The notes under the pieces were generated by a model that saw only the letters and a program-made list of their open reading frames with translations, was not told where the DNA came from and did no database searches. A stretch of DNA of 64,000 nucleotides. It comes from Candidatus Babeliales bacterium. Lineage in GTDB: Bacteria; Babelota; Babeliae; Babelales; JANWKD01. The first letter of the stretch is position 1. Each line of letters opens with the position of its first letter. A program made the translations under genes and the position numbers. Of this stretch, positions 13,346 to 37,014 are shown in pieces. The stretch lies in the NCBI GenBank assembly GCA_963722075.1, contig CAVRJM010000001.1, positions 960,001 through 1,024,000 on the forward strand, read 5' to 3'.

Positions 13346-13393
13346 TTAATTACTGTTAATACATATTTTATGGATAAAAATAGAGGTTATTTC

Positions 13394-15595
13394 ATGAAGT
13401 TAGTTAAAAAATTATTACTTGCCGCTTTCGCGCTTCCCTTATTAAACGCACAAGGTATGGAACCTGATTCAGTTGATATCGATTCCAGCACAATAGCGTT
13501 ATTTAAAACCAATGATAAGCAAAATGTTGCTATAGAGTTTAAATATATTGCTCATCAATCTAAAACACTGGTAAATCAGATTAAAGCTGCTGGTACGCTG
13601 AATGAAGCAACTGAAATCCCTTGCTCAAAAGAAACATTTATAATACTTCAAGCCGCATTGCAAGAAGCTTATATCCATAATTGTATTAATGATGAGTTTT
13701 TTGAAAGTCTTACATCTTTAAATCCAGAGCAACTTATTAATATAGCTAATGCTGCCAGTTGGGCTGATTTCCAATCACTTATAAAAACCGTAATAGAAAT
13801 AATTGGGCAGCGTTGCTTAAAGCATGAGAGTTACTTACCGCACGAGATATTAGAATCTTATCATTCATTAGGGTTAAATGATGTTTTAACAGAATTGATA
13901 AGAAATCTGCTTGATAAAAAAACATCTCAGAATGAACCAGCAGAAAATGAAGCTCAAGTAACATTAGTTGCCAATGATGGCAAAGAATTTAAAATATTAA
14001 AATCAATAGCCAGCCATTTCAAGACAATTCAACATATTATGGGCGATTATGATAATGAGACTGAAGCAATTCCTTTGCCTAATGTGGCTTCAGAAACATT
14101 ACAAACATTAATTTCCATAGCTAAGAACATAAACCAAGAAAATCCCGAACCAATAAGCATTATGGAAGGATTAATACCACAAGATACTCAAAAAATTATC
14201 GATCTTTTTACTGCTGCTGATTATTTAGGCAGTGAATATATATGCAATGGCCTTATTTCCATTATTGAAAAAAAATTGAATGATTCTGAATTACTTAATG
14301 ATTATGATAAAATTGCTTGGCTCTTACAAAACAGCACTCCATCCCTTATTCAGAAATTAGACCTCACTACTTTTTTTACTTCACTAATTCCTGATCAAAT
14401 TACCGCAACTACATTGACTGGCCATAGTTACTTTATTGCTTCAGTAGCTTTTAGCCCGAATAATAAATTACTTGCAACGGGATCTGATCAAACTATTAAA
14501 ATATGGGATGTTGTTGATGGCTCTTGCATAAAAACCTTAAAGGGCCGTAATCTTATTGATCTTATAGCATTTAGCCCTAACGGACAGATACTTGCTACTG
14601 GTTCGACTTGGAAAAAAATCGTTCAACTATGGAATGTTGTTAGTGGTTCTTGCCTACACACCTTAACTGTGCATGATGATTCTGATCTTAGTTGTTTTGC
14701 CTTTAGCCCAGATGGTACTCTCCTTGCAACTGATTCCGATGATAACATTAAACTATGGAATGTTATTGATGGTTCAAGCTTATTTACTTTAACCGATGTT
14801 TGTTTACACATCAGTTGTCTTGCTTTTAGCCCCGATGGCAATCTTCTTGTAACGAGCTCTGATAAAAAGATTAAATTATGGAATGTTGTTGATGGCTCTT
14901 GCATAAACACCTTAAAGGGCCATAAGAAAGATATTAAAAATCTTGCATTTAGTCCAAATGGTAAGATACTTGCCTCTATTTCAAGAGATAAAGTTATTAA
15001 ATTATGGGATGCTACTTCATTTGACTGCTTGCATACATTAGTTAGTCCTCCTACTAACAATAATACTCAAAGGTATATCTGCCGTGACCATATAGTTTTT
15101 AGTCCAGATGGTAATCTTCTGGCAACTGTTGTGGCTGGAGATTCAATGCTTAACATATGGGACGTGCATAAGGGCTCTCATCTATATACATTAACCGGCC
15201 ATACTCATCTCATAAGCGGGTTAACCTTTAGCCATAATGGTAATAAAATTATTACTGCATCTTGGGATAAAACAGTTAAATTATGGGACATTAAAACCGG
15301 TGTTTGTTTAAAGACCTTAACAGAGCATACCCAAGAAGTTCGATGCCTTACTCTAAGTCCTAATGGCCACCTACTTGCTACTGGTTCCAAAGATAATACT
15401 ATTAAATTATGGCGTCTTTTTGATGAAGAACTTTTAAATTTATCTTGTGAACAACTCTTATTATTAAAATTTTATTATGAAGCTCATAAACATACTATTC
15501 CTTTTGAATGTTCTGACCAACCCTACTTAAAAGAACTACATGATAGTTATCCATCCTCAATTCGTATATGGATTAATAAATTAACTAAGAAATGA
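13394..15595 (+). CDS. Secreted Skp1/BTB-like x2 + WD40 repeat protein (paralog 1)
   Basis: GAGG RBS before MKLVKK; DGKEFKI...IPLPNV...LFTAADYL; about 8 AFSPDG/IKLWD repeats. Confidence 0.85.
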   Translation: MKLVKKLLLAAFALPLLNAQGMEPDSVDIDSSTIALFKTNDKQNVAIEFKYIAHQSKTLVNQIKAAGTLNEATEIPCSKETFIILQAALQEAYIHNCINDEFFESLTSLNPEQLINIANAASWADFQSLIKTVIEIIGQRCLKHESYLPHEILESYHSLGLNDVLTELIRNLLDKKTSQNEPAENEAQVTLVANDGKEFKILKSIASHFKTIQHIMGDYDNETEAIPLPNVASETLQTLISIAKNINQENPEPISIMEGLIPQDTQKIIDLFTAADYLGSEYICNGLISIIEKKLNDSELLNDYDKIAWLLQNSTPSLIQKLDLTTFFTSLIPDQITATTLTGHSYFIASVAFSPNNKLLATGSDQTIKIWDVVDGSCIKTLKGRNLIDLIAFSPNGQILATGSTWKKIVQLWNVVSGSCLHTLTVHDDSDLSCFAFSPDGTLLATDSDDNIKLWNVIDGSSLFTLTDVCLHISCLAFSPDGNLLVTSSDKKIKLWNVVDGSCINTLKGHKKDIKNLAFSPNGKILASISRDKVIKLWDATSFDCLHTLVSPPTNNNTQRYICRDHIVFSPDGNLLATVVAGDSMLNIWDVHKGSHLYTLTGHTHLISGLTFSHNGNKIITASWDKTVKLWDIKTGVCLKTLTEHTQEVRCLTLSPNGHLLATGSKDNTIKLWRLFDEELLNLSCEQLLLLKFYYEAHKHTIPFECSDQPYLKELHDSYPSSIRIWINKLTKK

Positions 15596-15616
15596 AGAGA
15601 ATAATGGAGTTATAAA

Positions 15617-17773
15617 ATGAAATTAATTAAAAAATTATTATTCCTCATGTGTGCACTTACTATAGCACAGAGCTATGGTATGAAGCGTAAAGCATCAGAA
15701 ATAGGATCTACATCAAAAACTAGTAATAAAAAAATAGAATATGATTCTGAAGTTATTGTTACATTTAAAACTACTGATGATCAATCTATACCGGTAAAAT
15801 TACACTATATTTCTGAGTATTCTAGAACATTATATGATATGTTTATAGATGCAAACGATTCAAATGAACCTATTCCAGTACCATTTTCATCAGAACCATT
15901 CACTTTTATCAGTGTTGCATTAGAAACAGCTTCCCACGGATCTTTTGATGCAAAGTTTGATGAAAAACTTGAATCGTTGAGCATATCTCAACTTATTGAT
16001 ATTGCTAATGCTGCTTCTTGGACCGATTTCCAACTTCTTATAGAATCAGTAGTAAAAGCACTTACTAATCGCTGCTTAAAAAATCCTTGTGCTCAAATAT
16101 TACGCAAATATAAAAAAAAAGATTTAGCTGATGCGCTACTTACTATAATTACTACTAACCTTATTGTTTTAGCCACTAATGATGGTAAAACATTTACCAT
16201 TTCATGCGATGAAATAACCGATTTTAAAGTTATTCAAAAAATGTTTAATGATCTTGAAAACAATAGTGAACCAATTCCACTACCTAATATTTCTTCCCCC
16301 ATATTAGAAGTACTTTTATATTGCAACAAGCATACAAGTAATTCGCAATCCATTATGAAGGAACTAATGGCTTATGATTTGAAACCTCTCTTTGACCTTT
16401 TTAATGCTGCTGATTATTTAGATCATGAAAAACTAGTCCATTTATTTGCCAGTATTATCGGTAAAAAGTTAAGTGATCCTGCATCATTACATGATTATGA
16501 GGACGTTGCTTGGGTTTTACAAAATAGCTCACCGTTACTTATTGAAAACCTACATAACGCATCATTCTTTAATTCATTACTTCAGCTGGTCTGTATACCA
16601 GATAAAATTAGTGAAACTACCCTGACAAATGACGGAGAATATTTCCAAATTGCTTTTGGTCCTGGTGATCAAACGCTTATAGCGAATGGTCACAGAAATG
16701 TTACGGTATGGGATACCAATTCTAATACCTGGATAAATACATTACCTAGGTTAAACAACGATTATCATTCCCAAGTGATCTTGTGCCCTAGTGCACAAAT
16801 CGCTGCTATTACTGGCCCCAGTGTTATTAAACTATATGATGTTATTACTAATAACTGTATCCTCACCTTAACAAACACTCCCGCTTGGGTTAAATATTTT
16901 GACTTTAGTCCTGATGGGAAAACCTTTGCTTTTTCTGACGACTATACTACCCAACTATGGAGTACACATACCGGTGAACATCTCCATACTTTAAGTTCTA
17001 CTGATTCAAATCATTTTTTTGCCTTTAGCCCTGATGGAAAAATCATTGCTAATTGTACTAAGAAAGCTATCAAATTATGGAATGTTACGACTGGAAGCTG
17101 TATCCATACTTTAGAAATTTCAGATAAATATATTGATCTTATTGTCGATTTAAAATTTAGTCCAGATGGGCAAACTTTAGCTACTTCCTCTTGGGATACC
17201 ACTACTAAATTATGGAATGTCATTACTGGAGAATGTATCTATACATTGCAAGGCCATAGTGGGGGAATCGAGGATATTGCCTTCAGTCCTAATGGCCAAA
17301 TCCTTGCTACTAGTTCTGTTGATCAAACTATTAAATTATGGGATGTTACTACTGGTGAATGTCTTCAAACGTTAAATATATTCAAAAAAGCGAATCGTAT
17401 TACCTTTAGCCCTGACAGTTGCATACTTGCTAGTTCTTCAAATAACATTATTCAATTATGGGATACTATTACTGGTAACTATATTCACACGATAAGCACA
17501 CATACTCAAACAATTCAATCTCTTGCCTTTAGTTCTAACAACCACATACTCGCTAGCGCATCAAATAGTACCATTAAATTACATCCTATCAGAGATCAAG
17601 AATTGTTAAATACGTATTGTAGTCTACCGCTAGAACAATTATTATTGCTTGCTTTCTGCCATAATGCTCATAGCCACCATATACCTTTTAATTTCTCTCA
17701 GCATGCATATTTAAATGAAATTTATGAAAGTTGCCCGGACACTGTTCGAACACGGATCCCGGATTTAAAATAG
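15617..17773 (+). CDS. Secreted Skp1/BTB-like x2 + WD40 repeat protein (paralog 2)
   Basis: DGKTFTI...PIPLPNI...LFNAADYL; WD40 repeats. Confidence 0.85.
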   Translation: MKLIKKLLFLMCALTIAQSYGMKRKASEIGSTSKTSNKKIEYDSEVIVTFKTTDDQSIPVKLHYISEYSRTLYDMFIDANDSNEPIPVPFSSEPFTFISVALETASHGSFDAKFDEKLESLSISQLIDIANAASWTDFQLLIESVVKALTNRCLKNPCAQILRKYKKKDLADALLTIITTNLIVLATNDGKTFTISCDEITDFKVIQKMFNDLENNSEPIPLPNISSPILEVLLYCNKHTSNSQSIMKELMAYDLKPLFDLFNAADYLDHEKLVHLFASIIGKKLSDPASLHDYEDVAWVLQNSSPLLIENLHNASFFNSLLQLVCIPDKISETTLTNDGEYFQIAFGPGDQTLIANGHRNVTVWDTNSNTWINTLPRLNNDYHSQVILCPSAQIAAITGPSVIKLYDVITNNCILTLTNTPAWVKYFDFSPDGKTFAFSDDYTTQLWSTHTGEHLHTLSSTDSNHFFAFSPDGKIIANCTKKAIKLWNVTTGSCIHTLEISDKYIDLIVDLKFSPDGQTLATSSWDTTTKLWNVITGECIYTLQGHSGGIEDIAFSPNGQILATSSVDQTIKLWDVTTGECLQTLNIFKKANRITFSPDSCILASSSNNIIQLWDTITGNYIHTISTHTQTIQSLAFSSNNHILASASNSTIKLHPIRDQELLNTYCSLPLEQLLLLAFCHNAHSHHIPFNFSQHAYLNEIYESCPDTVRTRIPDLK

Positions 17774-17782
17774 AGGTTTTAA

Positions 17783-20461
17783 ATGAAATTAATTAAAAAA
17801 TTATTACTCCTCATATGTGCGCTTACTATAGCAAATGGCTATGGCATGAAGCGTAAAGCATCAGAAATAGGATCTACATCAAAAACTAGTAATAAAAAAA
17901 TAGAATATGATTCCGAAGTTATTGTTAGATTTAAAACTACTGATGATCAACCGGTATCGGTAAAATTATATTATATTTCTAAGTATTCTAAAACATTATA
18001 TGATATGTATATAGATGCTGACGATTCAAATGAACCTATTCCCGTACCATTTTCATCAGAACCATTCACTTTTATCGCTGATGCGTTTCAAAGGGTTATT
18101 AACTCAAACTTATTTGAAAATAAACTTTATGAAAAAATTCAAGAGTTAACCATAGATCAATGCATTAACCTTGCAAATGCCGCTTGCTGGGCTGATTTTC
18201 AACTACTTATTGAAGCTATAGTAGAAATTATTACTCATCGTTGCTTATATAGCGAAAATCTTTCACCACAAGAAGTGTTAGATGAATATCAAAAACGGGA
18301 ATTAAATGATGCTTTACTCTTATTAATCAAAAATAAATTAAATCCCATTGAAAAACCATCTTTTACCATTACTTTCAAAACTGATGACGATCAACTAATT
18401 GAGGTGAATTCTATTTATTTCGTTGGTCAAGCCGACACGTTGCTTCAATTATTTAGACAACGGGGTGGGCAACCAGTTGCCATTCCATTTTCAATGGAAA
18501 CTTTTACTTTCATCATAGAAGCACTGCAACATAGCTATAGTACACAATCATTTGATGGCGAATTTTGTAAAAAATGGGAATTATTAACTCACAACCAATT
18601 GATCACTATTGCTAATGCCGCTCACTGCTATAATATTGAATCATTATTACAAAAAATAATAACAATAATAACGCATCGATGTTTAACTAGTGATGAATGC
18701 TTACACCCCCAGCTTGCATTGCAATCATATTATGAAAATGGCTTAGCTTCTGAGCTAATCCCATTAATCCAAAATGAACTTAATACAATCATCTCATCTG
18801 AAGAAAACACCATTGTTTTAATTACCAACGATCATCAAGAAATCGCTATTTGCCCATCTCAAGCACGTTCTTTTAAAACAATTCAAAATACAATAGATTC
18901 TTATGAAAATACAAATGAACCTATTTTTCTGCCCAATATTTCTCAAAACATATTGATGCTTCTTCTTCAAGCGCTCAAAAATATTACATATCAACACATA
19001 AATTCTTCAGTAGTCATAGAAGGTCTTGCAAATCAAACTGTTGAAACACTTATCGCTCTTTTTAATGCTGCAGATTATTTAGGAAGTGATTACGTATGCA
19101 AAGCACTTATGGCTACTATTGAAAAAAAATTGGATGAGCCTAGTTTTTTAGATAATTATGATAGTATCGCCTGGTTGTTACAAAGTAATTTTGATTTTTT
19201 TAATGAAACATTACAGAGCGGTTCATTTTTTTATTCATTATTACAACTAGTAGCTAAACCCCAAACAAACACACCAGCCAATATAATAAATCATGGTACA
19301 ACAATAAAAGGTATGAAATTTAGCCCAGATGGCCAACTTCTTGCAACTCTTACTGACAAAACCGTAACTATTTACAATTCTCATGATGGTTCAATTCTAG
19401 ATACATTAGAAGGTTTTTCTCTGGAGTACCCATCTTTATTATTTAGTCCCAATGGGCAATTTATTGTGGTACATGATAAAGGACCTTATGGAACTAGACT
19501 TATTATTAAAATATATGATGTTATCAATAAATCTTGTGTATACACATTACAATGCAAGAGCAATGTTAGAAATACCGTTTTCAGTCCTGATAGCCAAAAT
19601 CTTATTATATATTATTCTCATGGCACTATTGAATTAGTTAATATCATTAATAAATCTTATGATACTGTCGAAACTAACAACAAAAAATTTATGTGCACCG
19701 CATTTAGCCCCGATGCAACTATTTTTGCTATGACTTCAGATAATTTCATACAATTGTGGGATATTTATGAGTACCGTTATTTACCAATTTCAACTGGGCA
19801 TAAGGAACGAGTTAAGCATTTAGCATTTAGTCCTGATGGAAAATTCCTAGTAACAATCTTTATCGGTAACGATATCAAAATTTGGGATGTTTCTGATGGT
19901 TCTTGCTTACGTACAATAACCCATAATAATAGTTATATTAACCATGTTGTCTTTAGTCCCGATGGGGAATTTTTTGCTACATGCGCTGACAATGGCACTA
20001 TTACCTTATGGACCAATAATGGTGACCGGGTAAAAACATTGCTTGCTCATGATCAGCCAGTTTCATTCATTGCATTTAGTCCTTATGGGCAAATTCTTGT
20101 CTCTCAATCTGCTAAAACCGCTAAAATATGGGATATTAATAATGGATCTGGCATTTCAGAATATCATATCAGTGAAAAAGCTTTTATTAATTTTTTAGCC
20201 TTAAGTCCTGACGACCAACAACTCGCTATCAATTCTTCCGATGGAACCACTGCGTTATATCCCCTTTATGATCATGATCTGGCAACATCGTTTATGGCGT
20301 TACCTTTTGAACAATTGCTACTACTCAAACTATGTTATAATGCTTATAGGTATACTATTCCATTCAATTTTTCTGGCCATCCGTATTTAAAAGAAGTGTA
20401 TGATAGTTGTCCTGATATCGTCCAAACATGGATTAATAAATTAATACCACCACAAAAATAG
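17783..20461 (+). CDS. Secreted Skp1/BTB-like x3 + WD40 repeat protein (paralog 3)
   Basis: Three modules ending LANAACWADF / IANAAHCYNI / LFNAADYL; WD40 repeats. Confidence 0.85.
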   Translation: MKLIKKLLLLICALTIANGYGMKRKASEIGSTSKTSNKKIEYDSEVIVRFKTTDDQPVSVKLYYISKYSKTLYDMYIDADDSNEPIPVPFSSEPFTFIADAFQRVINSNLFENKLYEKIQELTIDQCINLANAACWADFQLLIEAIVEIITHRCLYSENLSPQEVLDEYQKRELNDALLLLIKNKLNPIEKPSFTITFKTDDDQLIEVNSIYFVGQADTLLQLFRQRGGQPVAIPFSMETFTFIIEALQHSYSTQSFDGEFCKKWELLTHNQLITIANAAHCYNIESLLQKIITIITHRCLTSDECLHPQLALQSYYENGLASELIPLIQNELNTIISSEENTIVLITNDHQEIAICPSQARSFKTIQNTIDSYENTNEPIFLPNISQNILMLLLQALKNITYQHINSSVVIEGLANQTVETLIALFNAADYLGSDYVCKALMATIEKKLDEPSFLDNYDSIAWLLQSNFDFFNETLQSGSFFYSLLQLVAKPQTNTPANIINHGTTIKGMKFSPDGQLLATLTDKTVTIYNSHDGSILDTLEGFSLEYPSLLFSPNGQFIVVHDKGPYGTRLIIKIYDVINKSCVYTLQCKSNVRNTVFSPDSQNLIIYYSHGTIELVNIINKSYDTVETNNKKFMCTAFSPDATIFAMTSDNFIQLWDIYEYRYLPISTGHKERVKHLAFSPDGKFLVTIFIGNDIKIWDVSDGSCLRTITHNNSYINHVVFSPDGEFFATCADNGTITLWTNNGDRVKTLLAHDQPVSFIAFSPYGQILVSQSAKTAKIWDINNGSGISEYHISEKAFINFLALSPDDQQLAINSSDGTTALYPLYDHDLATSFMALPFEQLLLLKLCYNAYRYTIPFNFSGHPYLKEVYDSCPDIVQTWINKLIPPQK

Positions 20462-20471
20462 AGGTTATAAA

Positions 20472-22682
20472 ATGAAATTAATTAAAAAAATACTAGTACT
20501 TGCTTGCGTACTTCCGTTGTTCAGTACTTATTGTATGGAAAACTCGACCGTTCTATGCAAAACGAGCGATGAGAAGTATGTTCGCCTTCCCGTAGAATAT
20601 CTTAATAAATCACGAACCTTCTATAATGATTTTATTGAAGCAAGCAAAAAAACAGATAAACAATCAATTCCAACGATTAACGTATTTTGCTCTAAAGAAA
20701 CATTCATATTGCTCATGGAAGCGCTTAAGATAGCTTATCTAAAGGATTCTTTAGATAAATCATTTTGTGAAAAGCTTTCAGCATTAACTACTCCTACTCA
20801 AGGGCTTATTGATCTTGCCAACGCCGCCTGCTACGCCGATTTCCAACTGCTTATAGCAACAATGATAGAAATCATAGGTCAGCGATGCTTGGATCATGAA
20901 TCTTATTTACCAGATGAAATGTTACAATCTTATAAAAAAATGGGCTTAACGGATGAATTTGTTGCATTAGTTATCCGCTATTTAAACTCGCCTGCACTTA
21001 ATAGATCATCGATGGAAACAGAACCACAAACTATTACCATTTTTACCAACGATGATGAAACATTCACTATTCCTATAGCAATAGCAGCTCATTTTAAAAT
21101 TATTCAAAATATTCACCCCTTTAATGAAGAGTTAACAAGACCAATTGAATTACCAAATATTAATTCAACGGAATTAGAAAAGCTTCTTCATCTTCTTAAC
21201 AAGCTTCTGCAATCTGATGAAGAACAATCGGATCTTATTAATGAATTACTATCTTATGATATTAAGGATGTTATTACTCTTTTTAACGCGGCAGATTATT
21301 TAAATAGCGATACATTATGTGAATTGTTACTCAGTGTTATCGAGCAAAAATTAAAAAATCCTGAACTTTTATATGATAATGACACCATTGCATGGATACT
21401 ACAAAATCAGCAAAATAGAACCATACTTATTAACCATCTGATTCAAACGCCTTTTATTAAGGGATTACTCAATTTTATTTGCAAATCAGATAAAATTGAA
21501 CCTGTTGCGCTCAGAGGATATAGCGGCCCTTACCGTATTGCTTTTAGTCCTGATGAAAAAATCCTTGCTACTACTACTTCTCGTACAATAGTACTTTGGG
21601 ATACCGCCACGGTTAAAGCCCTGCGTACCCTAGATATGGGTAGAACTTTTAGTCTTGCCTTTAGCCCAGATGGGAAATTTCTTGCTACCGGTTCAGATGG
21701 CAAAAATGCTATTAAATTATGGAATCCTCATACTGGCGACTGCATCCATACCTTCCAAAAAGCGAATGGTCATTTCACGCGTCTTACCTTCAGCCCTAAT
21801 GGGAAAATACTTGCCTCTGTTTGCGCTTCTGATTCCTTTCAGCTTTGGAACACAAGTACATTTCGTTGCCTTTATAAGGCAACCAATATTAACCGAATTC
21901 CTGGTGTAGCTTTTAGCCCTGATGGAAAATTTTTAGCCGCCTGTTCTGAAAATATTCTTAAAATATGGGATACAAATACTTTTGACTGTATTTATACTCT
22001 TGATGAGCATACTGCGCAAATTAATCGTTTTGCATTTAGTCCACAGGGCCATTTTGTTGCTACCTGTTCTGACGATACCACTATTAAACTGTGGGATGTT
22101 GATACCGGTAGATGTGTACGAACTTTTAATGATACCGATAAAGTTACCTGTTTAACCTTTAGCCCCGATGAGAAAATACTTGTCACCGCCTCTTCTGATC
22201 ATTATCGTAAACTCTGGGATGTACATACTGGCAAATGCTTAAAAGCAACTTACGGTCCTCAATTTTGCGTTCTTGCCTTTAGTCCACATGGCCTATTTCT
22301 TGCAGGTTCATCCAAGGATAGTGTTAGTTTATGGGATACGAGTACTAATTACTCATTAATTCATAATGATAGCCATAGAGAAGTAGATGCCCTCCGGTTT
22401 AGCCCTAATGGTCAATTTCTTGCTACTGCATCTTTTGGTGAGGTCTTTTTACGAAGAATGGTTGATACGGCAAAAATAGAAGAATATAAATATTTACCAC
22501 CAGAACAATTGTTGTTACTTGCCTTTTGCTATAATGCGTTTGCAAACAAAATTACTTTTGATTTCTCTTGGCACCCCTATTTAAACGAGGTATATAATAA
22601 CTGTTCTTCTGCAGTACGTGATCTGATTACCCAAAAGTTAATGCCAACTGGTTACCAACCAAGCTCATGCTTACTTAGTTAA
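20472..22682 (+). CDS. Secreted Skp1/BTB-like x2 + WD40 repeat protein with C-terminal CaaX (paralog 4)
   Basis: IELPNI...LFNAADYL; WD40 repeats; ends CLLS. Confidence 0.85.
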   Translation: MKLIKKILVLACVLPLFSTYCMENSTVLCKTSDEKYVRLPVEYLNKSRTFYNDFIEASKKTDKQSIPTINVFCSKETFILLMEALKIAYLKDSLDKSFCEKLSALTTPTQGLIDLANAACYADFQLLIATMIEIIGQRCLDHESYLPDEMLQSYKKMGLTDEFVALVIRYLNSPALNRSSMETEPQTITIFTNDDETFTIPIAIAAHFKIIQNIHPFNEELTRPIELPNINSTELEKLLHLLNKLLQSDEEQSDLINELLSYDIKDVITLFNAADYLNSDTLCELLLSVIEQKLKNPELLYDNDTIAWILQNQQNRTILINHLIQTPFIKGLLNFICKSDKIEPVALRGYSGPYRIAFSPDEKILATTTSRTIVLWDTATVKALRTLDMGRTFSLAFSPDGKFLATGSDGKNAIKLWNPHTGDCIHTFQKANGHFTRLTFSPNGKILASVCASDSFQLWNTSTFRCLYKATNINRIPGVAFSPDGKFLAACSENILKIWDTNTFDCIYTLDEHTAQINRFAFSPQGHFVATCSDDTTIKLWDVDTGRCVRTFNDTDKVTCLTFSPDEKILVTASSDHYRKLWDVHTGKCLKATYGPQFCVLAFSPHGLFLAGSSKDSVSLWDTSTNYSLIHNDSHREVDALRFSPNGQFLATASFGEVFLRRMVDTAKIEEYKYLPPEQLLLLAFCYNAFANKITFDFSWHPYLNEVYNNCSSAVRDLITQKLMPTGYQPSSCLLS

Positions 22683-22705: not shown

Positions 22706-22749
22706 TTGAAAAAATAGCTAGTTAAAATTATAATTAGCTATTTTTTCAA
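22706..22749 (+). terminator. Hairpin after the WD40 array
   Basis: TTGAAAAAATAGCTA / TAGCTATTTTTTCAA inverted repeat. Confidence 0.5.
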
Positions 22750-22803
22750 AAAAATAGTATTATTAATTAAAATAATGATCCAGTCAATAAATGGGGGATT
22801 TAT

Positions 22804-24366
22804 ATGACCATGGTACGTTGGTTAAAATTAATCACTATTCTTATCAGTATAACTGCTGCATTTTTCTTTATTAACAAAAACGCTCATATACTTATTCATA
22901 CAGGATATGAATTATACTTCAAATTAATGCATCCTATCCCAAAAAAATCCCTTTGCCCTTATCAAGCTACCAATAAACGATTTGGCTTTAACTCGGTAAC
23001 CTCTGCTACTCCTTTACAAGAATTAAAACACACCGGATCATTACCAAGCTGGCTCAAAGGAACCTTCTTAGCAACAGTACCCGCTCAATTTGAATTAGGA
23101 AATACTAAAGCCGCTTATTCCTTTAGTGGCCTTGCTATGCTACAAGGGTTTTATTTTGATGGCAATGGTATTAAATTTCAAAACTCATTCTTAGATAGTA
23201 TTTATTACCGCCGTTGCACAAAAAACGGCAAATTTGATAGCAACATGACCAATCAAAAAAAAAGCTTTTTTTCACGGTTAGCAAACAGTTTTAGCACTCC
23301 CGATCCTTATGACAATGGCAACATTGCTATAGGATATATGAATGGTAATGCAATCGCCTTAACAGAAACAACATTGGGTGTTATTGTTGATTCCAACACC
23401 TTACATACAAGAGCATCATTTGATCTTAATGAGCAGCTGGAAGGGCATCTTACCACTGCTCAATTTCAGTATGATCCTGAAACTAAATCGTGGTATAATT
23501 ATATGACAAACTTTGCACAACAAAGCACTTATCAGATTTATAAAATTACCGCTGATAACAAAACAGTATTAATTAGTTCCATACCGGTTAAAACGCCATC
23601 ATACATGCGCAGCTTTGCCATGAGCAAAGATTATATCGTGTTGATTGAGATTCCTTTTGTAGTTAATCCCATGGATTTATTATTTAATGGAGGGCCATTT
23701 TTAACTGCATTACAATGGAAACCTGAGCTGGGAACTCGTTTTATTGTAATTAATAAACATACGGGTGAGCAACACCAACCATTGGTTACCACTCAACCAT
23801 TTTTCACGATTAATATTATCAATACCACTCAAGAAAATAATACCCTTACCATAGATGCTATTACCTATGAAAATGCTGACTTAATAAACCATATCAGTAT
23901 GGAAGCATTGCAGAGTAATGATCCGCATGAATTTGAACCAGGATATACTACCCGTTTCACACTCAATCTAGAAAATAAAGAAGCATCACATCAGCGCATT
24001 CCTTCTGCAGCCATTGAATTCCCTACTATAAATGCACAATACAACATGAAGCCATATACATTCTTATACGGACTTACTGCTGATCACCCACACCAATTTC
24101 CTGCACAGCTTATTAAAATAAACATAAGCAATGGAACTTCAACTAAATGGCAACAAGAACAGTGCTTTGCCAGCCAGCCGGTGTTTGTACCAAATCCTAC
24201 CGGAACTAATGAAGATGACGGTGTTATTCTTTCTGTTGTTTTTGATAGTATTGCACATCAATCATTTTTACTGCTATTGGATGCGCATAATTTTACGGAG
24301 CTTGCACGCGCACCGCTGCCATGCGCTATTCCATTGGGACTTTCAGGTACGTTTATTAAAGAATAA
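22804..24366 (+). CDS. Carotenoid oxygenase (RPE65/CCD) fold protein lacking the iron-binding His
   Basis: GSLPSWLKG, ALTE, EFPTIN, EDDGVILS, LDA..F.ELARA motifs; His ligands replaced. Confidence 0.85.
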   Translation: MTMVRWLKLITILISITAAFFFINKNAHILIHTGYELYFKLMHPIPKKSLCPYQATNKRFGFNSVTSATPLQELKHTGSLPSWLKGTFLATVPAQFELGNTKAAYSFSGLAMLQGFYFDGNGIKFQNSFLDSIYYRRCTKNGKFDSNMTNQKKSFFSRLANSFSTPDPYDNGNIAIGYMNGNAIALTETTLGVIVDSNTLHTRASFDLNEQLEGHLTTAQFQYDPETKSWYNYMTNFAQQSTYQIYKITADNKTVLISSIPVKTPSYMRSFAMSKDYIVLIEIPFVVNPMDLLFNGGPFLTALQWKPELGTRFIVINKHTGEQHQPLVTTQPFFTINIINTTQENNTLTIDAITYENADLINHISMEALQSNDPHEFEPGYTTRFTLNLENKEASHQRIPSAAIEFPTINAQYNMKPYTFLYGLTADHPHQFPAQLIKINISNGTSTKWQQEQCFASQPVFVPNPTGTNEDDGVILSVVFDSIAHQSFLLLLDAHNFTELARAPLPCAIPLGLSGTFIKE

Positions 24367-24388: not shown

Positions 24389-24545
24389 ATGGATCCCCAC
24401 GTTCCTCGGGATGACATATGGTTTTTATCTTTTAATTTGATCTTCACGGCCTAACGGCCTCGGGATGACAAAAAATAAGATATTTTGTTTACATTATTCC
24501 AAACGGTAATATTGTCATCCTGAGCGTCAGCGTAAGGATCCAGTA
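24389..24545. repeat. Cluster of three REP-like palindromes
   Basis: Two ...CTCGGGATGACA copies plus an inverted TGTCATCCTGAG...GGATCCAGT. Confidence 0.75.
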
Positions 24546-24610
24546 AATAAAAACATTCCTTTTTCTTTTATTTTTTTTCCATACTTCAAAAGAAAGTATG
24601 AGGAAAAAAG

Positions 24611-25909
24611 ATGCAGATAAACAATAAATCGGCTATGCCGATTCAGCAAGTATATTGGTATATCAATAAGCCATTAAATCCGCCACTTAAAGAAAATATC
24701 ACCGTTGATGTTCTTATTATTGGCGGTGGCATGGCCGGATTAAGTGCCGCCCAAGCATTTCATGAAAAAGGGTTGCGCGTTGCGCTCATAGAAAAAAATT
24801 TTTGTGGCGCTGGAGCAAGCGGCAAAAGTTCAGGATTTATTACTCCCGATTCAGAATTTGCACTCCATAATTTAATTGATTTTTATGGAAATGAGGTTGG
24901 CAAACGCCTTTGGGAATTTTCTTCTAACGGCGTAGCACTCATAGAAAAGAATATACACCAACATAAGATTTCATGTGATTATCAAAAACAAAATACGCTG
25001 GTTATTGCTTCAAGCCATCATGCTTTTAACTCATCAATTAAAGCAGAATATCAGGCACGCAAACAATTTAATTACGCTGCAACTCTTTATGAAAAAGATC
25101 GGGTGCCTTCAATTCTAGGATCATCAAGCTATTATGGCGCTATTGAATATCCTGACACGTTTGGCATACATGCATACGCCTATTGCCAAGAAATGAAAAC
25201 GATTTTAACAAATGCGGGTGTTTTACTATACGAAGATACGCCGCTTACGAGCTTTACTACAAACGGTGCGCAAACGCCACATGCCACGATTACTGCTGAT
25301 AAAGTAATTGTTTGTATTGATCGCTTTATTAATGATTATGCAAAATTGCTTTCTCAAGTATACCATGTACAAACGTTTTTAATGATGAGTGAACCCGTAT
25401 CAGATCAGGTAATTAATGCGTTATTTCCAGCACGCAAATTTATGGTATGGGATACCAATCTTATTTATAATTATTTTCGCTGCACCGGGGATAATCGATT
25501 AATGCTGGGGGGCGCACGGCTTTTATCAACGTATGCTCCACGTGAACATTATCATAATAAAAAAATAATTAAAAAATTATCTTCTTATTTCAAAAAAAGC
25601 TTCCCGCAAGTTGATATTCAATTTAATTATATATGGCCAGGCCTTATTGGGATAACCAAAGATATTATGCCTATTGCCGGACCGGATAAACAACATCCTC
25701 ACATTTATTATATTAGCGGGGCCGCCGGGCTACCATGGGCTGCAGCCTTGGGCGTCTATAGTGCACAGCATATACTAGAAAACCGTACTGATTTAGATGT
25801 CGTGTTTTCTCCTGAACGCCATTTTGCACTCGGCAGTTGCGCACAAAAATTATTAGGAACACCGCTTACATTTGCTTTATGTAATTTTATGCGCACCAGA
25901 TCACTATAA
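24611..25909 (+). CDS. FAD-dependent oxidoreductase (DadA/PuuB-like)
   Basis: DVLIIGGGMAGLS, GASGKSSG, WPG..GITKD.MP. Confidence 0.85.
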   Translation: MQINNKSAMPIQQVYWYINKPLNPPLKENITVDVLIIGGGMAGLSAAQAFHEKGLRVALIEKNFCGAGASGKSSGFITPDSEFALHNLIDFYGNEVGKRLWEFSSNGVALIEKNIHQHKISCDYQKQNTLVIASSHHAFNSSIKAEYQARKQFNYAATLYEKDRVPSILGSSSYYGAIEYPDTFGIHAYAYCQEMKTILTNAGVLLYEDTPLTSFTTNGAQTPHATITADKVIVCIDRFINDYAKLLSQVYHVQTFLMMSEPVSDQVINALFPARKFMVWDTNLIYNYFRCTGDNRLMLGGARLLSTYAPREHYHNKKIIKKLSSYFKKSFPQVDIQFNYIWPGLIGITKDIMPIAGPDKQHPHIYYISGAAGLPWAAALGVYSAQHILENRTDLDVVFSPERHFALGSCAQKLLGTPLTFALCNFMRTRSL

Positions 25910-31804: not shown

Positions 31805-32674
31805 TCAATGCATCAAAAAAAGTGCTTCAAAAAATTCTCTATTAGTAGGATTTGATAATTTTAATGGATGATTAAAATAAGAATTAACGGGGTATTTTTC
31901 AAGCGAAAATCCATATACATTTTCGGTTTTTAACCATAACCAATCTTTTTTTAAGCTAATACAGCTTGTTATTGTTGGTATCGCTAATTCTAAAAATACT
32001 TTATTGTTAAAAAATAGTTGCGCTAAATCTATAAAATCATTCCTATAGCGAGCGGGCAAATAAAGAACATCTGAAAAAAAGGTACATACATGATTGCGTC
32101 CCCAATTATTTTCCAATGTTTTTTTATATTTTTTTGAAACATTTTTTAACGATTTATTCATCGCATTATAACCAAAACCACTTTGCCACCAGTACCAATT
32201 TAATGCTTTGGATCCTTTAGATAGATCAATGGCAGTCCCATGATAATCATTATTTACAAAATACAAAAATTTCATTTCTGGTACCCAGATTTTGCTCGTA
32301 TCAAGATTTTCGAACAACCATGCATGCGCAACACAATCATCCATTAAAAAAAAGTACCCATCAAAAGAAGGATATTTTTTCATCGCATCAGCAAGCGCTA
32401 TGTACCCAAAATAGCCACGCGTATGATTCACTTGATGTACTTCAGGATGGTTGCTCGGTCCGTAAAAAACAATATTAGGGAAATAATTACCGTATATTTT
32501 TTTTAAAAGGGGAATCGATTCATAATGTTGATGATTATAATTTATGATTAATAAAATATTTTTAAAATCAGCAGCAAATCCCTGAGAAATAAAAAAGAAT
32601 AATAGAAATAACAAGAAATTATACCTATTCATAGTATACCTTTCATTTTTATTAAGAATAATCTTAAAGATCAT
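31805..32674 (-). CDS. Secreted protein resembling the C-terminal part of STELLO/DUF288 glycosyltransferases
   Basis: ILLIINYN, YFPNIVFYG, GYFFLMDD, FLELAIPT, HPLKLS. Confidence 0.6.
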   Translation of the reverse strand: MIFKIILNKNERYTMNRYNFLLFLLFFFISQGFAADFKNILLIINYNHQHYESIPLLKKIYGNYFPNIVFYGPSNHPEVHQVNHTRGYFGYIALADAMKKYPSFDGYFFLMDDCVAHAWLFENLDTSKIWVPEMKFLYFVNNDYHGTAIDLSKGSKALNWYWWQSGFGYNAMNKSLKNVSKKYKKTLENNWGRNHVCTFFSDVLYLPARYRNDFIDLAQLFFNNKVFLELAIPTITSCISLKKDWLWLKTENVYGFSLEKYPVNSYFNHPLKLSNPTNREFFEALFLMH

Positions 32675-32758
32675 AACAACTTTGAGGATTATTTTTCAAT
32701 AAAAAATTATTGGTATATTTATTTATTTTAATATTTACAATTATAAATATTAAAATTC

Positions 32759-33835
32759 TTAGTTTACTGTTGGCATTTGATAATTAAGGACCTTGAGATC
32801 ATCCAGCCATGCATCCATGAGCGCACGCTCATTTGTTTTGAAAAAATCATGCACTATCATAAGATCAATTAGTTCTTTAATGCGATCATCAAACTGCTTT
32901 TGTTCTGAACGCCAATCACATAAAAGCGCTAATAATTATTCAGTTTTCAAATATAAATCAAGTTCATCGATAAAATCATGCAATAGATTATGCAAATTTC
33001 TGTATTGAGCAACCGTCGGCTTTGAAAAACAGAGCGAAGCATTCAGGTCCCATAATAAGCGTTGTACCCAATAGCCACGCCAAATATCACATACCCTAAA
33101 CGATGTTGTTATTGGTAATACTAAACCCCAAAAAGCATGGTAATAAAAAATAGTATTCTGTGAATTAAAAGGGCTCATAGTATACGCAGCTAAACAAATT
33201 GGATCATGATCTTCGAATATGACTTCCTCTTGCCGCGTTAATCTAAAAATTGCATCCACATCAGGATCTATATTAGCCAAAGCTTGCTGGATGGGGATAT
33301 GCGCAGATTGCATGGCTACTGAATAATTGAAAGGTGCGGTGATTTTACTTAATGGGTAACCACGTGGCCACACGTTCGCTTGCCCAAAAAGTGCATACGG
33401 ATTAATAGCCGTTTCTACAGAAGAATATTGTAAAAGAGTAACGTGCTCAGGATAGCAATTTATATGCTCATCAATAAGCAAATTATCATCATCTGTTTCA
33501 TAAATTATTTTGGCACCATGCTCTATAGCATATAAATAGCCTATATTTTTTCTACAATAATGATTCCATGGTAACAATGGAATAATTTTATATGGAAGCT
33601 GTTCTTGAACTTCTACGCTCAGAAAATCGCAATTATCTAAATGCCAATTTGAGGGCGTCTTTTTATCGGCAACCACCACCAAGCGCCATTCTCTCAAACG
33701 TGCAAGCTTTTTTAATGTTGCAGTGGGATAATTGATAGTGGTTACTACAATCCACTTATCATGAGCTTGCACGCCTCCATAATAAAAAAAAATAACTACA
33801 ATAAGAAAATGCTCATTTGCCCAATACTTCATCAC
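32759..33835 (-). pseudogene. STELLO/DUF288 glycosyltransferase with an in-frame premature TAA at 32936-32938
   Basis: DKWIVVTTINYPT, RKNIGYLYAI, YETDDDN, PFNSQNT, DIWRGY; frame continues 58 aa past the stop, including AWLDDL. Confidence 0.8.
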
Positions 33836-34016
33836 TTCCTTTTTTTAACAATGTTTTATGAATTTATAAGTATCCCAACAGAAAATGTATTATGAACAAA
33901 TAATGTTATAACTATTACTTCCCTTTAGGATTTGAAAAAACAAAATAATTCACTAAAATGGTAGCAACCTTATCCCTATAATTTCAATAAATCCACGCAA
34001 GGAGATATTACACGGT

Positions 34017-35018
34017 ATGAAAGAAAAGATTTCTATTGTAATACCTGTTTATAATGAAGAAAATAATTTAATTCCTATGTATTCCATTATTAATGAGATT
34101 GTTCAAAAAGTTGCTGATTATTTTAGTTATGAACTGATTTTAGTTAACGACGGCAGCAAGGATAATTCTTGGTCTATTATTAAAAAATTAGCCGCTGCAG
34201 ATCCAGCAATTAAAGCAATTAATTTTAGTAGAAACTTTGGGCATCAAATTGCACTCACTGCTGGCTATGATATAGCAACCGGTGATGCTATTATCACTAT
34301 GGATGCAGATTTACAAGATCCACCTCATCTTATATTGGAGATGATTGAATCATGGAAAAAAGGAAATTTAATTGTATATGCACGGCGAGCCAACCGAAGC
34401 GATACTTTTTTAAAAAAATATACCGCACTCCTTTATTATAAATTTTTAGATTATATAGCTGACGTTAAAATACCACGTAACGTAGGTGATTTTCGCTTAA
34501 TTGATAAAAAGGTGTTACAAACGCTAAAAGAATGTCCAGAAAAATCACGCTACTTGCGCGGCATGGTTGCTTGGACTGGCTTTAAACATGATTTTATAGA
34601 TTTCAATAGATCAAATAGACATGCAGGAACTACTGGATATACATGGAATAAAATGTTTAAGCTTGCATTTGATGGGCTTACGGCATTTTCATTATTTCCA
34701 CTTAAAATTGCAGCCTTTGTTGGATTATTTGTTATGGTAACAGGAAGCCTTATGTTTAGTTATATCACCATTGATGCACTTATTTTTGGCATCGATTACC
34801 CACTTTTCAAATGGCTCGTTACTATAATTTATATTTTTATGGGCTTACAATTTATTCTTTTATGGTTAGTAGGTGAATATATTGGTAGAATTCATGAGCA
34901 ACAAAAAAATAGACCTTTATATTTAGTTGATGAATTAGTAAATTTTGAAAAAGCAATTTCGATATCAGATTCCATCATTGCTGCAAATGACCCCAAAGTA
35001 AAAGATCTTCATTATTGA
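34017..35018 (+). CDS. GT2 polyprenyl-phosphate glycosyltransferase (GtrB/YfdH-like)
   Basis: PVYNEE, NDGSKD, RNFGHQ, DADLQDPP, two C-terminal TMs, RPLY. Confidence 0.92.
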   Translation: MKEKISIVIPVYNEENNLIPMYSIINEIVQKVADYFSYELILVNDGSKDNSWSIIKKLAAADPAIKAINFSRNFGHQIALTAGYDIATGDAIITMDADLQDPPHLILEMIESWKKGNLIVYARRANRSDTFLKKYTALLYYKFLDYIADVKIPRNVGDFRLIDKKVLQTLKECPEKSRYLRGMVAWTGFKHDFIDFNRSNRHAGTTGYTWNKMFKLAFDGLTAFSLFPLKIAAFVGLFVMVTGSLMFSYITIDALIFGIDYPLFKWLVTIIYIFMGLQFILLWLVGEYIGRIHEQQKNRPLYLVDELVNFEKAISISDSIIAANDPKVKDLHY

Positions 35019-35106
35019 TTACGAGTTGAGTTTTTTATTGATTTTTTTAGAGTAATTAAAAATATTATTTCAAAAGAAAGAATTATACAATTCAAAGGAA
35101 ATTATA

Positions 35107-35796
35107 ATGAAAGCAGAATTCGATTCATATATAAAAGATTACCGCAAAGATCTTGATAATCACCTTGCATTATCGGGAGAAAATAGTAGTTTTTTTGCTG
35201 AGTATAAAGCATTAAAACTCAAGGAATGGCTGGGTAAGCAAGCGTTAACTGCACAAAAAATATTAGATTTTGGTTGCGGTGACGGGCTAATGACTAACTT
35301 TGTGAGCGTTCACCTTCCCAACGCTCAACTCTATGGCGTTGATCCTTCCCCAGATAGCATTAAAGCTGCGCAAAAAAATTATCCCCATTTACGCCTAAGT
35401 GTCAGCTATGATGAACGGTATGATTTAGATTTTCCCACCGCTTATTTTGATATTATATTTGCTGCAGGAGCGTTTCATCATATTCAATTTAAGCATCATA
35501 ACGGCTTTTATAAAGAACTATTTAGAATCTTAAAACCTAATGGCGTATTAGTTACTTTTGAGCTTAACCCACTTAATCCTCTTACTTATAGAACCTTTAA
35601 AAAAAATCCTATTGATCAACATGCCACCATGCTCAAACCATGGTATGCATATCAATTAGGTAAAGAATGGGCTCGTAAACGTTCATTAAAATTTTACTGT
35701 TTTTACCCTCATGCACTTCGATGGTTGCGTTTTTCAGAAAAATATTTAACCAAAATACCAGCAGGTGCATTATATGCTACTATTTTCACCAAATAA
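35107..35796 (+). CDS. Class I SAM-dependent methyltransferase
   Basis: ILDFGCGDG, GVDPS, LKPNG. Confidence 0.9.
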   Translation: MKAEFDSYIKDYRKDLDNHLALSGENSSFFAEYKALKLKEWLGKQALTAQKILDFGCGDGLMTNFVSVHLPNAQLYGVDPSPDSIKAAQKNYPHLRLSVSYDERYDLDFPTAYFDIIFAAGAFHHIQFKHHNGFYKELFRILKPNGVLVTFELNPLNPLTYRTFKKNPIDQHATMLKPWYAYQLGKEWARKRSLKFYCFYPHALRWLRFSEKYLTKIPAGALYATIFTK

Positions 35797-35829
35797 AGAT
35801 CGTTATTTTGCACATAAAGGGAGCAATTA

Positions 35830-37014
35830 ATGAATATCATGCTGTGCCGGCTTAATAATCTTCAACATGCGCTTGCAGGCCTTATTAAAACAGGCGTTCC
35901 GCTTATTTTTTATGATGGTCAAAAACTAGTTCCTTTTGATGCAAGTGATGATATAGGCATATATTATTTCATTCCCCGGCTTGCTTGCTTTTTTAATATA
36001 TCCCTTGAACAGAGTATCGCGTTTTTCTTTAATACCATGCTAGCGTGTTCATTTATAGCAGCCTTTGTGGGATTTTGGTGTTTATATCGTACTCTTTTTT
36101 CAAGAATTTTCATCACCGCTGAGCTATCGCTCCTTCTTTTTTTTATTATTCGGACTAAAACTTATGATGTATACCTAACCTATATCATGGCAAATTTATG
36201 TTTGATCCCATTATTTTTATATCTGTTTTTTAAAAAAAATAATTCAGCTATATTTGATATCTTTTTAATAATCGGCGGTGTAATAATAGGATCTTTACAT
36301 TATATAAGAGCTTTTTCAGCCCTGGGTGCCGGTGCATTTATCGTCTGTATGATCATATTAAATCACCAATTTTCTGGCAAAAAAAAGTCATTTTTATTAA
36401 GTTGCTTACTAGGTGGATTACTTCTTTCAGTTTGTTATTTTCAAAACATTATATATTCATATCAAAGCGCTGCTAAAAAAATATTTACCAACTACTCGGA
36501 CTTTCCTATACACCATCCTTTTTGGCATTCTATTTATATAGGCTTTGGTTTTTTAAAATTTTTAAATGACGATAATATTGAATATGCTGATCAATGTGGC
36601 ACTAATAAAGTGCAACAGCCTATAACTGCACATAATTTCAATGAATATGAAAATTATTTAAAAAATGAAGTCGCTCTTCTATGGAAAAAGAAGAAGGTAT
36701 TTTTTTTATTTACTATTTTTGCAAAAATAGGCGTCTTAATTTTGTTTTTCCTTTTTTTTACAAATATAGGCATAATTCATCTATTTTTTACCAAATCATG
36801 GGCCATTGAATGTTCTTTTATAGCATCATTTATATGCAATAGCTTACCTTGTCTTTTAGCAGTACCTTGTTTTGCTTATGGCGTTGGATTCATTACCCTG
36901 AGCACGATATATTGTATTGTGAGTATTTGCACTATATCAAGGCAAGAGCTCGTAGGAAAATTATTTACGTTAAAAAAAATAATGGGTCGAAACATTTTCT
37001 TTAACAATGCATAA
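35830..37014 (+). CDS. Polytopic membrane protein, putative GT-C glycosyltransferase
   Basis: About 10 TM; DDIG, HYIR, HPFWHSIYIG; paralog of 37932-39158. Confidence 0.55.
   Translation: MNIMLCRLNNLQHALAGLIKTGVPLIFYDGQKLVPFDASDDIGIYYFIPRLACFFNISLEQSIAFFFNTMLACSFIAAFVGFWCLYRTLFSRIFITAELSLLLFFIIRTKTYDVYLTYIMANLCLIPLFLYLFFKKNNSAIFDIFLIIGGVIIGSLHYIRAFSALGAGAFIVCMIILNHQFSGKKKSFLLSCLLGGLLLSVCYFQNIIYSYQSAAKKIFTNYSDFPIHHPFWHSIYIGFGFLKFLNDDNIEYADQCGTNKVQQPITAHNFNEYENYLKNEVALLWKKKKVFFLFTIFAKIGVLILFFLFFTNIGIIHLFFTKSWAIECSFIASFICNSLPCLLAVPCFAYGVGFITLSTIYCIVSICTISRQELVGKLFTLKKIMGRNIFFNNA

Follow-up and report, generated by a model that had tools for sequence, protein, structure and literature searches.

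Enzymes of the RPE65/CCD superfamily hold their iron with four His, which are described as absolutely conserved (PMC8866865). Fe2+ is described as indispensable, and the need for the His and Glu residues has been shown by mutagenesis (PMC5133782; echoed in PMC12710743). The metazoan CCDs RPE65, NinaB and BCO1-2 have the same fold as the protein reported here (Z 44-47) and, unlike it, retain the 4-His iron centre (PMC11142922, PMC8866865). With RPE65 there is a precedent for using the tunnel in a role other than oxygenation. The lancelet BCOL (9PLV) resembles our protein in its N-terminal export signal and its altered second shell; however, it keeps all four His and the Fe, and its second-shell change is Glu to Asp (PMC13734108). 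Secreted BCOLs and RPE65 are described as keeping the iron site (PMC13734108, PMC5643517, PMC11142922). In Phycomyces blakesleeanus, the expected His are reported for only one of three extra CCD genes; the text on them is a passing remark on single fungal genes, without analysis of function, clade or selection (PMC5133782).

The best solved match to our protein is NdCCD, the apocarotenoid cleavage dioxygenase of Nitrosotalea devanaterra (6VCF/6VCG/6VCH; E 2e-100, Z 54.5, 36-37% identity). NdCCD lacks an N-terminal anchor and carries four His, three Glu, and the FDG and DPC motifs. The predicted propeller and dome, the amphipathic helix and the residues that map to the tunnel are common to both. 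Our protein, in contrast, has 0/4 His and 2/3 Glu, reads FSG, lacks PDPC and carries a hydrophobic helix at the N-terminus, followed by a linker. Neither dioxygenase nor RPE65-type isomerase activity is known without the 4-His Fe(II) centre. A search of the literature, mainly open-access papers without supplements, turned up no account of a CCD clade without the His or of CCDs in Babelota; the Phycomyces remark was the only precedent, and an earlier mention is possible.

The predicted fold is complete and the iron ligands are lost

Herein, a CCD-like gene of a Candidatus Babeliales bacterium (the source genome) is described. The window is the whole stretch of DNA that was analysed, 64,000 nucleotides long. 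The reading frame at 22804-24366 on the + strand was confirmed as an intact ORF of 520 aa, as first annotated. Its PF03055 match is the only one that a profile search finds in the 99%-complete source genome. The features of the locus are listed below; the clade is the group of His-less relatives that is described in the next section.

22706..22734 (+): sigma-70-like promoter, TTGAAA-17-TATAAT, 11/12, within the 121 bp that separate the last WD40 gene from the ORF
22793..22798 (+): Shine-Dalgarno-like GGGGGA, 5 nt before the ATG
22804..24366 (+): intact ORF, 520 aa, predicted RPE65/CCD fold without the 4-His iron site
22822..22872 (+): hydrophobic helix at the N-terminus (aa 7-23), followed by a linker of ~36 aa; predicted signal-anchor or signal peptide
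23125..23127 (+): S108, replacing the Asp of the FDG motif; Asn in 20/24 clade members
23263..23292 (+): amphipathic helix, aa 154-163, counterpart of the RPE65/NdCCD membrane-binding helix that follows PDPC
23365..23367 (+): E188 (RPE65 Glu148), second-shell Glu kept, invariant in 24/24; predicted partner of R269
23461..23463 (+): Q220 (CAA), His site 1; in the clade (n=24) Q 19, N 4, R 1
23608..23610 (+): R269 (CGC), His site 2; Arg in 23/24, among the slowest-evolving sites
23812..23814 (+): N337 (AAT), His site 3; in the clade (n=24) N 19, S 2, T 2, E 1
24016..24018 (+): E405, second-shell Glu retained; E in 16/24 clade members, constraint relaxed
24175..24177 (+): Q458, in place of the third second-shell Glu; 7 residue types among clade members, no constraint
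24343..24345 (+): S514 (TCA), His site 4; evolves fast among clade members (S, I, V, A, M, N, K)

The protein is predicted to be a full RPE65/CCD-fold protein, a seven-bladed beta-propeller with a helical dome. PF03055 matches over aa 64-518 with 316 bits against a cut-off of 27, and the match covers positions 3-468 of the 469-position profile. The AlphaFold2 model has a mean pLDDT of 91 and was built on a 45-sequence alignment that includes active CCDs. It superimposes on NdCCD with an rmsd of 1.7 A over 451 aligned residues. Membership of a particular enzyme family was not found: the NCBIfam equivalogs NF053778 and NF053780 (lignostilbene dioxygenase) and NF052295 (8'-apo-carotenoid 13,14-dioxygenase) scored 62-98 bits against cut-offs of 650-800, and the ESM Atlas returned generic RPE65 clusters only.

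The initial annotation had proposed that all four Fe-binding His are replaced. This was verified by phmmer alignment to NdCCD (6VCF) and RPE65, in which the ligand sites are Q220, R269, N337 and S514 and no His is placed at any of them. TAQF, YMRSF, FTINIIN and GLSG in our protein align on TAHP, YMHSF, FAFHHVN and GFHG in NdCCD, and RPE65 His241, His313 and His527 (numbering from the alignment) fall on R269, N337 and S514. The proposed second-shell change is likewise correct, SEP/GEP having become SQP at Q458. The initial annotation had missed that the other two second-shell Glu, E188 and E405, are retained, and that the FDG motif has become FSG in our protein and FNG in most clade members. 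A catalytic CCD has four His ligands to Fe(II) and three second-shell Glu. Our protein has neither set in full, and E188 is the only one of the three Glu that is invariant across the clade.

Four His (HHHH) are read in 191/242 aligned family members, a set of genome copies and metagenomic homologs in which relatives of the query are over-represented (best 150 of 8474 matches). The loss in our protein is therefore not a matter of chance. Sequencing or assembly error was considered as the cause and rejected, because public contigs agree and relatives at 43-75% identity share the replacements. Contigs from public runs are identical to this DNA across the Q220, N337 and S514 codons, with R269 in an uncovered gap, and the best-matching run may itself be the source sample.

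A clade without the four His is kept by selection

A PF03055 match is present in 45/261 genomes of the phylum. Among the 44 genome copies examined (the fragment in G211 was left out), 32 read HHHH, seven have three His, one has one His and four have none; the His-intact anchored CCDs are those of other Babeliales families. The four zero-His genomes are the source genome and three of its four same-family genomes, and the remaining one, G111 (64% complete), has no PF03055 match. The His-less copy is the single CCD in each of these 4/5 family genomes. No active CCD paralog was found in any of the four by profile search, and a role as regulator of an active paralog was rejected on this ground.

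For phylogenetic analysis (LG+G4 or LG+F+G4), 231 of the 242 aligned sequences were used, 9 duplicates and 2 partial rows having been dropped. With the four His columns removed, 27 rows form one clade with SH-aLRT 100. In a second tree, 25 of the 27 were included and the clade was supported at 98.8/100 (SH-aLRT/UFBoot). It is nested among anchored His-intact Babeliales CCDs, which form both the sister and the ancestral group. No member of the clade has four His and 24 of the 27 have none; all have lost site 1, and 26 carry Arg at site 2. The expectation that orthologs would share the losses is thus borne out, the replacements being common to the clade, including relatives at 43-75% identity. 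Members that read QRHH, YRHR and QHTV branch near the base, where the order is weakly supported, and from their sequences they look like intermediates of the loss. The database label 'beta,beta-carotene 9',10'-dioxygenase' on clade members P0003, P0015 and P0057 is likely a misannotation.

Fewer than four His is a state that requires at least 12 changes on the 231-row tree, most of them in the anchored Babeliales-type part. In G094/P0106, which form a separate lineage, the four sites are N,H,S,R, and the Glu that pairs with the Arg is kept. Independent partial losses in other anchored Babeliales-type CCDs read NHSR, HHNH, QHHH, YHNG, YHHY and VQNH. They are carried by L028 (G094) and P0106, by L025, L027, L029, L039 and L041 (family f12), and by L037 (G241), L043 (G177), P0087, P0088 and P0093.

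The His-less genes are under purifying selection. The dN/dS value, which was expected to lie below 1, was 0.07-0.33 in 21 pairs among seven His-less DNA sequences (Nei-Gojobori); dS is near saturation (pS 0.58-0.75), and these ratios are rough. The four closest His-less pairs gave 0.08-0.13, compared with 0.08-0.24 for 11 His-intact pairs. No stop codons were found in the matches of the four His-less genomes. The CCD-like protein is 54% identical between the source genome and G108, within the 51-64% of five syntenic neighbours. In the core clade of 19 sequences, with a tree length of 5.2 substitutions per site, 104/461 columns are invariant. These data show that the loss of the four His is real, clade-wide and maintained by selection. 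With an intact predicted fold, lost catalytic residues and selection that keeps the gene, the protein would be classed as a pseudoenzyme.

Constraint differs among the replaced sites. Within the clade, R269 ranks in the slowest 6-11% of sites and Q220 in the slowest 14-19%; site 1 is Q or N in 23/24 members, and the changes D108->N and H105->Y have almost reached fixation. Evolution is fast both at site 4 and at position 458, with which site 4 pairs. The pairing of His with Glu was taken from the scheme in PMC8866865. Among all non-redundant rows, whose related members are not independent, E188 is kept in 27/27 sequences whose site 2 is R/K. Of the 28 sequences in which site 4 is non-cationic, 24 have lost E458. 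In two clade members with R/K at site 4, the Glu partner is not kept. The alignment thus points to a Glu partner that is held for the Arg at site 2 and released for the fourth His.

The predicted tunnel, docking helix and N-terminal anchor

Tunnel positions were mapped by sequence alignment from the BCMO-1 list given in PMC8866865. Across these 16 positions the relative evolutionary rate is 0.50, and across the remaining hydrophobic positions it is 0.73 (p 0.02-0.03 for the 19 core sequences, 0.006-0.007 for 24). This set is preferred to an earlier one of 19 positions with p 0.001, in which two positions were doubtfully mapped and one was added from RPE65. The same test in His-intact Babeliales CCDs gave a similar but weaker difference, 0.59 vs 0.73-0.77 (p 0.07-0.11). 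About 95% of tunnel cells are hydrophobic across the clade. The Trp that clamps the tunnel neck is lost (W->S/A) in 3/19, namely the source protein and its two closest tunnel variants. The conservation of the tunnel could be structural rather than ligand-related.

The PDPC motif is absent from the 520-aa protein. The putative membrane-docking amphipathic helix is retained, with aa 154-163 aligning with the NdCCD/RPE65 helix and helical in the model. A hydrophobic N-terminal stretch is present in 23/23 full-length clade members (KD17 1.6-2.6), mostly with a basic N-side, and is followed by a linker of 21-117 aa. The anchor that the initial annotation pointed out is thus present; however, it is not a clue to repurposing, since His-intact Babeliales CCDs carry one too. 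The segment occurs in 21/32 His-intact Babeliales copies, some of whose starts were truncated by ORF calling, vs 18/159 other HHHH proteins. Its presence on His-intact copies indicates that the anchor is likely older than the His loss. An independent-pairs test of the anchor as driver of the loss gave p about 1, the trait differing in only about 2/19 pairs.

Genomic context and host lipid supply

The CCD-like gene follows the fourth gene of a WD40 array, which ends at 22682. The array (window 13370-22682, + strand) encodes four tandem proteins of 718-892 aa with signal-peptide-like N-termini and C-terminal WD40 repeats. It sits between a tRNA-Ser/Arg/Ser cluster, which precedes it, and the CCD-like gene. 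A Skp1_POZ match lies within it at 15617-17773, and paralogs of its N-terminal part are found at this one place in the genome only. The WD40 proteins look like eukaryote-mimicking exported ubiquitin-ligase adaptors. The position right after the array, noted in the initial annotation, is correct for the source genome. It does not hold as a clue to function; a functional link was rejected, as the relatives in G108, G109, G110 and L047-L049 have other neighbours. The promoter-like site in the 121-bp gap, the best among 11 sites whose overall count is at chance level, suggests that the CCD-like gene may be transcribed independently of the array.

Other neighbours are shared. The gene lies downstream of a block that we take to be HIT-PilC-YggU in the source genome, G108 and G109. 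A DAO-family FAD oxidoreductase gene (window 24611-25909, + strand) is found near the CCD-like gene in four His-less loci; it is adjacent in the source genome and L049, a few genes off in G108 and G110, and absent from the stretches examined in G109 and L047/L048. A functional link to this gene was set aside and its presence treated as ordinary synteny, its position being variable among the loci. These shared neighbours fit vertical inheritance. No lipid-transport partner was found in the gene neighbourhood of the His-less loci.

Several further observations were made around these loci. The four His-less loci with the FAD oxidoreductase are the one in the window and L032, L034 and L049. Between the CCD-like and FAD oxidoreductase genes lies a dispersed REP-like repeat of ~40 bp (window 24513-24551). 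Incomplete copies in reverse orientation lie at about 24390-24470, about 20 blastn-short matches are found elsewhere in the genome, and the 9-base core of the repeat is present 93 times. Window 31805-37014 and beyond holds glycosyltransferase-like, methyltransferase-like and multi-pass membrane ORFs, labelled by sequence reading. In nine loci of family f21 (L009, L017, L020, L023, L026, L030, L031, L038, L040), proteins of one shared family, presumably with a Cache domain, are encoded beside His-intact CCDs. One of these proteins has partial matches to the sensor proteins MctS/CtpM, and they may be sensors connected with what the CCD produces.

Babeliales (Dependentiae/Babelota) are described as parasites without fatty-acid synthesis, whose route to host lipids is stated as unknown (PMC4776705), and protist hosts are reported for them (PMC12172432). 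Ketoacyl synthase and DXR gave no match in 5/5 genomes tested, including the 1.47-Mb source genome, and the absence of ketoacyl synthase agrees with PMC4776705. The source genome keeps a cis-prenyltransferase and an acyltransferase. Phytoene synthase gave no match in 261/261 phylum genomes, and any polyene ligand would therefore come from outside. Rhodopsin matches were found in 3/261 phylum genomes, two of them over the cut-off, and in none of the five genomes of the source family; retinal supply for a rhodopsin was rejected accordingly. The full-length microbial rhodopsin matches are L050 (G245) and L051 (G074), and G245 also has a His-intact CCD. His-intact anchored CCDs occur in this phylum, which has no phytoene synthase match and almost no rhodopsin.

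Discussion

Oxygenase activity of the 520-aa protein is very unlikely, because Fe2+ is described as indispensable and mutagenesis has shown the need for the His and Glu residues (PMC5133782); we regard it as almost certainly absent. The initial annotation proposed a repurposed, non-catalytic protein, either a lipid/carotenoid binder or a propeller scaffold. The shared loss, the purifying selection and the lack of a new metal set support this reading. We consider it somewhat probable that the protein is anchored in a membrane and, free of iron, binds a polyene or lipid of the host (a carotenoid, an apocarotenoid or another lipid) without cutting it.

Such a binder may work as follows. The N-terminal helix would tether the protein to the inner membrane, and a linker of 20-50 aa would hold the propeller outside the cytoplasm. 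The retained amphipathic helix would dock the mouth of the tunnel onto a membrane, and the retained aromatic tunnel would draw out and hold the ligand. R269 and E188 would stand in for the charge and volume of the metal and order the propeller axis, and Q220, N337 and R269 may also act as a polar end-stop against which a head group with a hydroxyl or carboxyl would rest. The parasite, unable to make carotenoids or fatty acids, would then capture or shuttle intact host lipid, possibly for membrane supply or antioxidant protection.

The constraint on the replacements themselves, with R269 and Q220 slow and positions 108 and 105 near-fixed, would also suit a metal-free new enzyme. The Q220/R269/N337/E188 cluster would then be a new active site, such as that of an acyl-ester hydrolase, acyl transferase or isomerase with a host lipid as its substrate. 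RPE65 shows that the fold can change its chemistry (PMC11142922, PMC12710743). However, models of the non-oxygenase activities known for RPE65 still include the iron centre (PMC12710743). No conserved residue of the site is an obvious nucleophile, N or R can stand in place of Q220 and S, T or E in place of N337, and constraint is relaxed at positions 405, 458 and 514. A new enzyme is thus considered unlikely. A protein-binding scaffold, decoy or host-facing adhesin/effector with a vestigial tunnel is also judged improbable. Beta-propellers are common interaction modules, the source genome has exported WD40 proteins, and many clade-specific invariants, including R137, D145, E376 and P433, lie off the mapped tunnel. 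On the other side, no active paralog exists to be regulated, the WD40 array is adjacent in the source genome only, and conservation is higher at the tunnel positions than at the remaining hydrophobic ones, which favours a putative binder over a bare scaffold.

Very little is left for a metalloenzyme with an alternative ligand set. H215, D145, D291, E376 and C454 are invariant in the clade, but they include a single conserved His, which is off the ligand positions, and most of the acidic residues are equally conserved in His-intact CCDs and look structural. An Arg at a ligand site would repel the cation, and no replacement set or new cluster of conserved His/Cys was seen across the clade alignment. 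Neutral decay after loss of the site is hardly credible. The patchy occurrence of Babeliales CCDs and the several partial His losses could be read in its favour; the low dN/dS, the absence of stops in the four genomes, the invariant columns of a long core-clade tree and a divergence that matches the neighbouring core genes stand against it.

The reading as a lipid or polyene binder has its own limit. Since only 45/261 phylum genomes have a CCD, it cannot be the general lipid-uptake route of the phylum. A more specific version is possible but doubtful. Here the protein would be an envelope-anchored extractor of intact carotenoids or lipids from host membranes, reached by a stepwise switch from HHHH through QRHH to QRNx that was repeated independently in other Babeliales lineages with an 'amide plus one Arg-Glu pair'. 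In that version, the RPE65/CCD superfamily would have in this clade its first functional branch that is free of iron.

A stable CCD that does not cut would be useful for trapping ligand complexes. For Babeliales, the protein is a candidate for part of the route to host lipids, in a minority of genomes. For the family, a selected clade without the four His would mean a second, iron-free use of the fold, and would offer natural intermediates for the study of how an enzyme becomes a binder.
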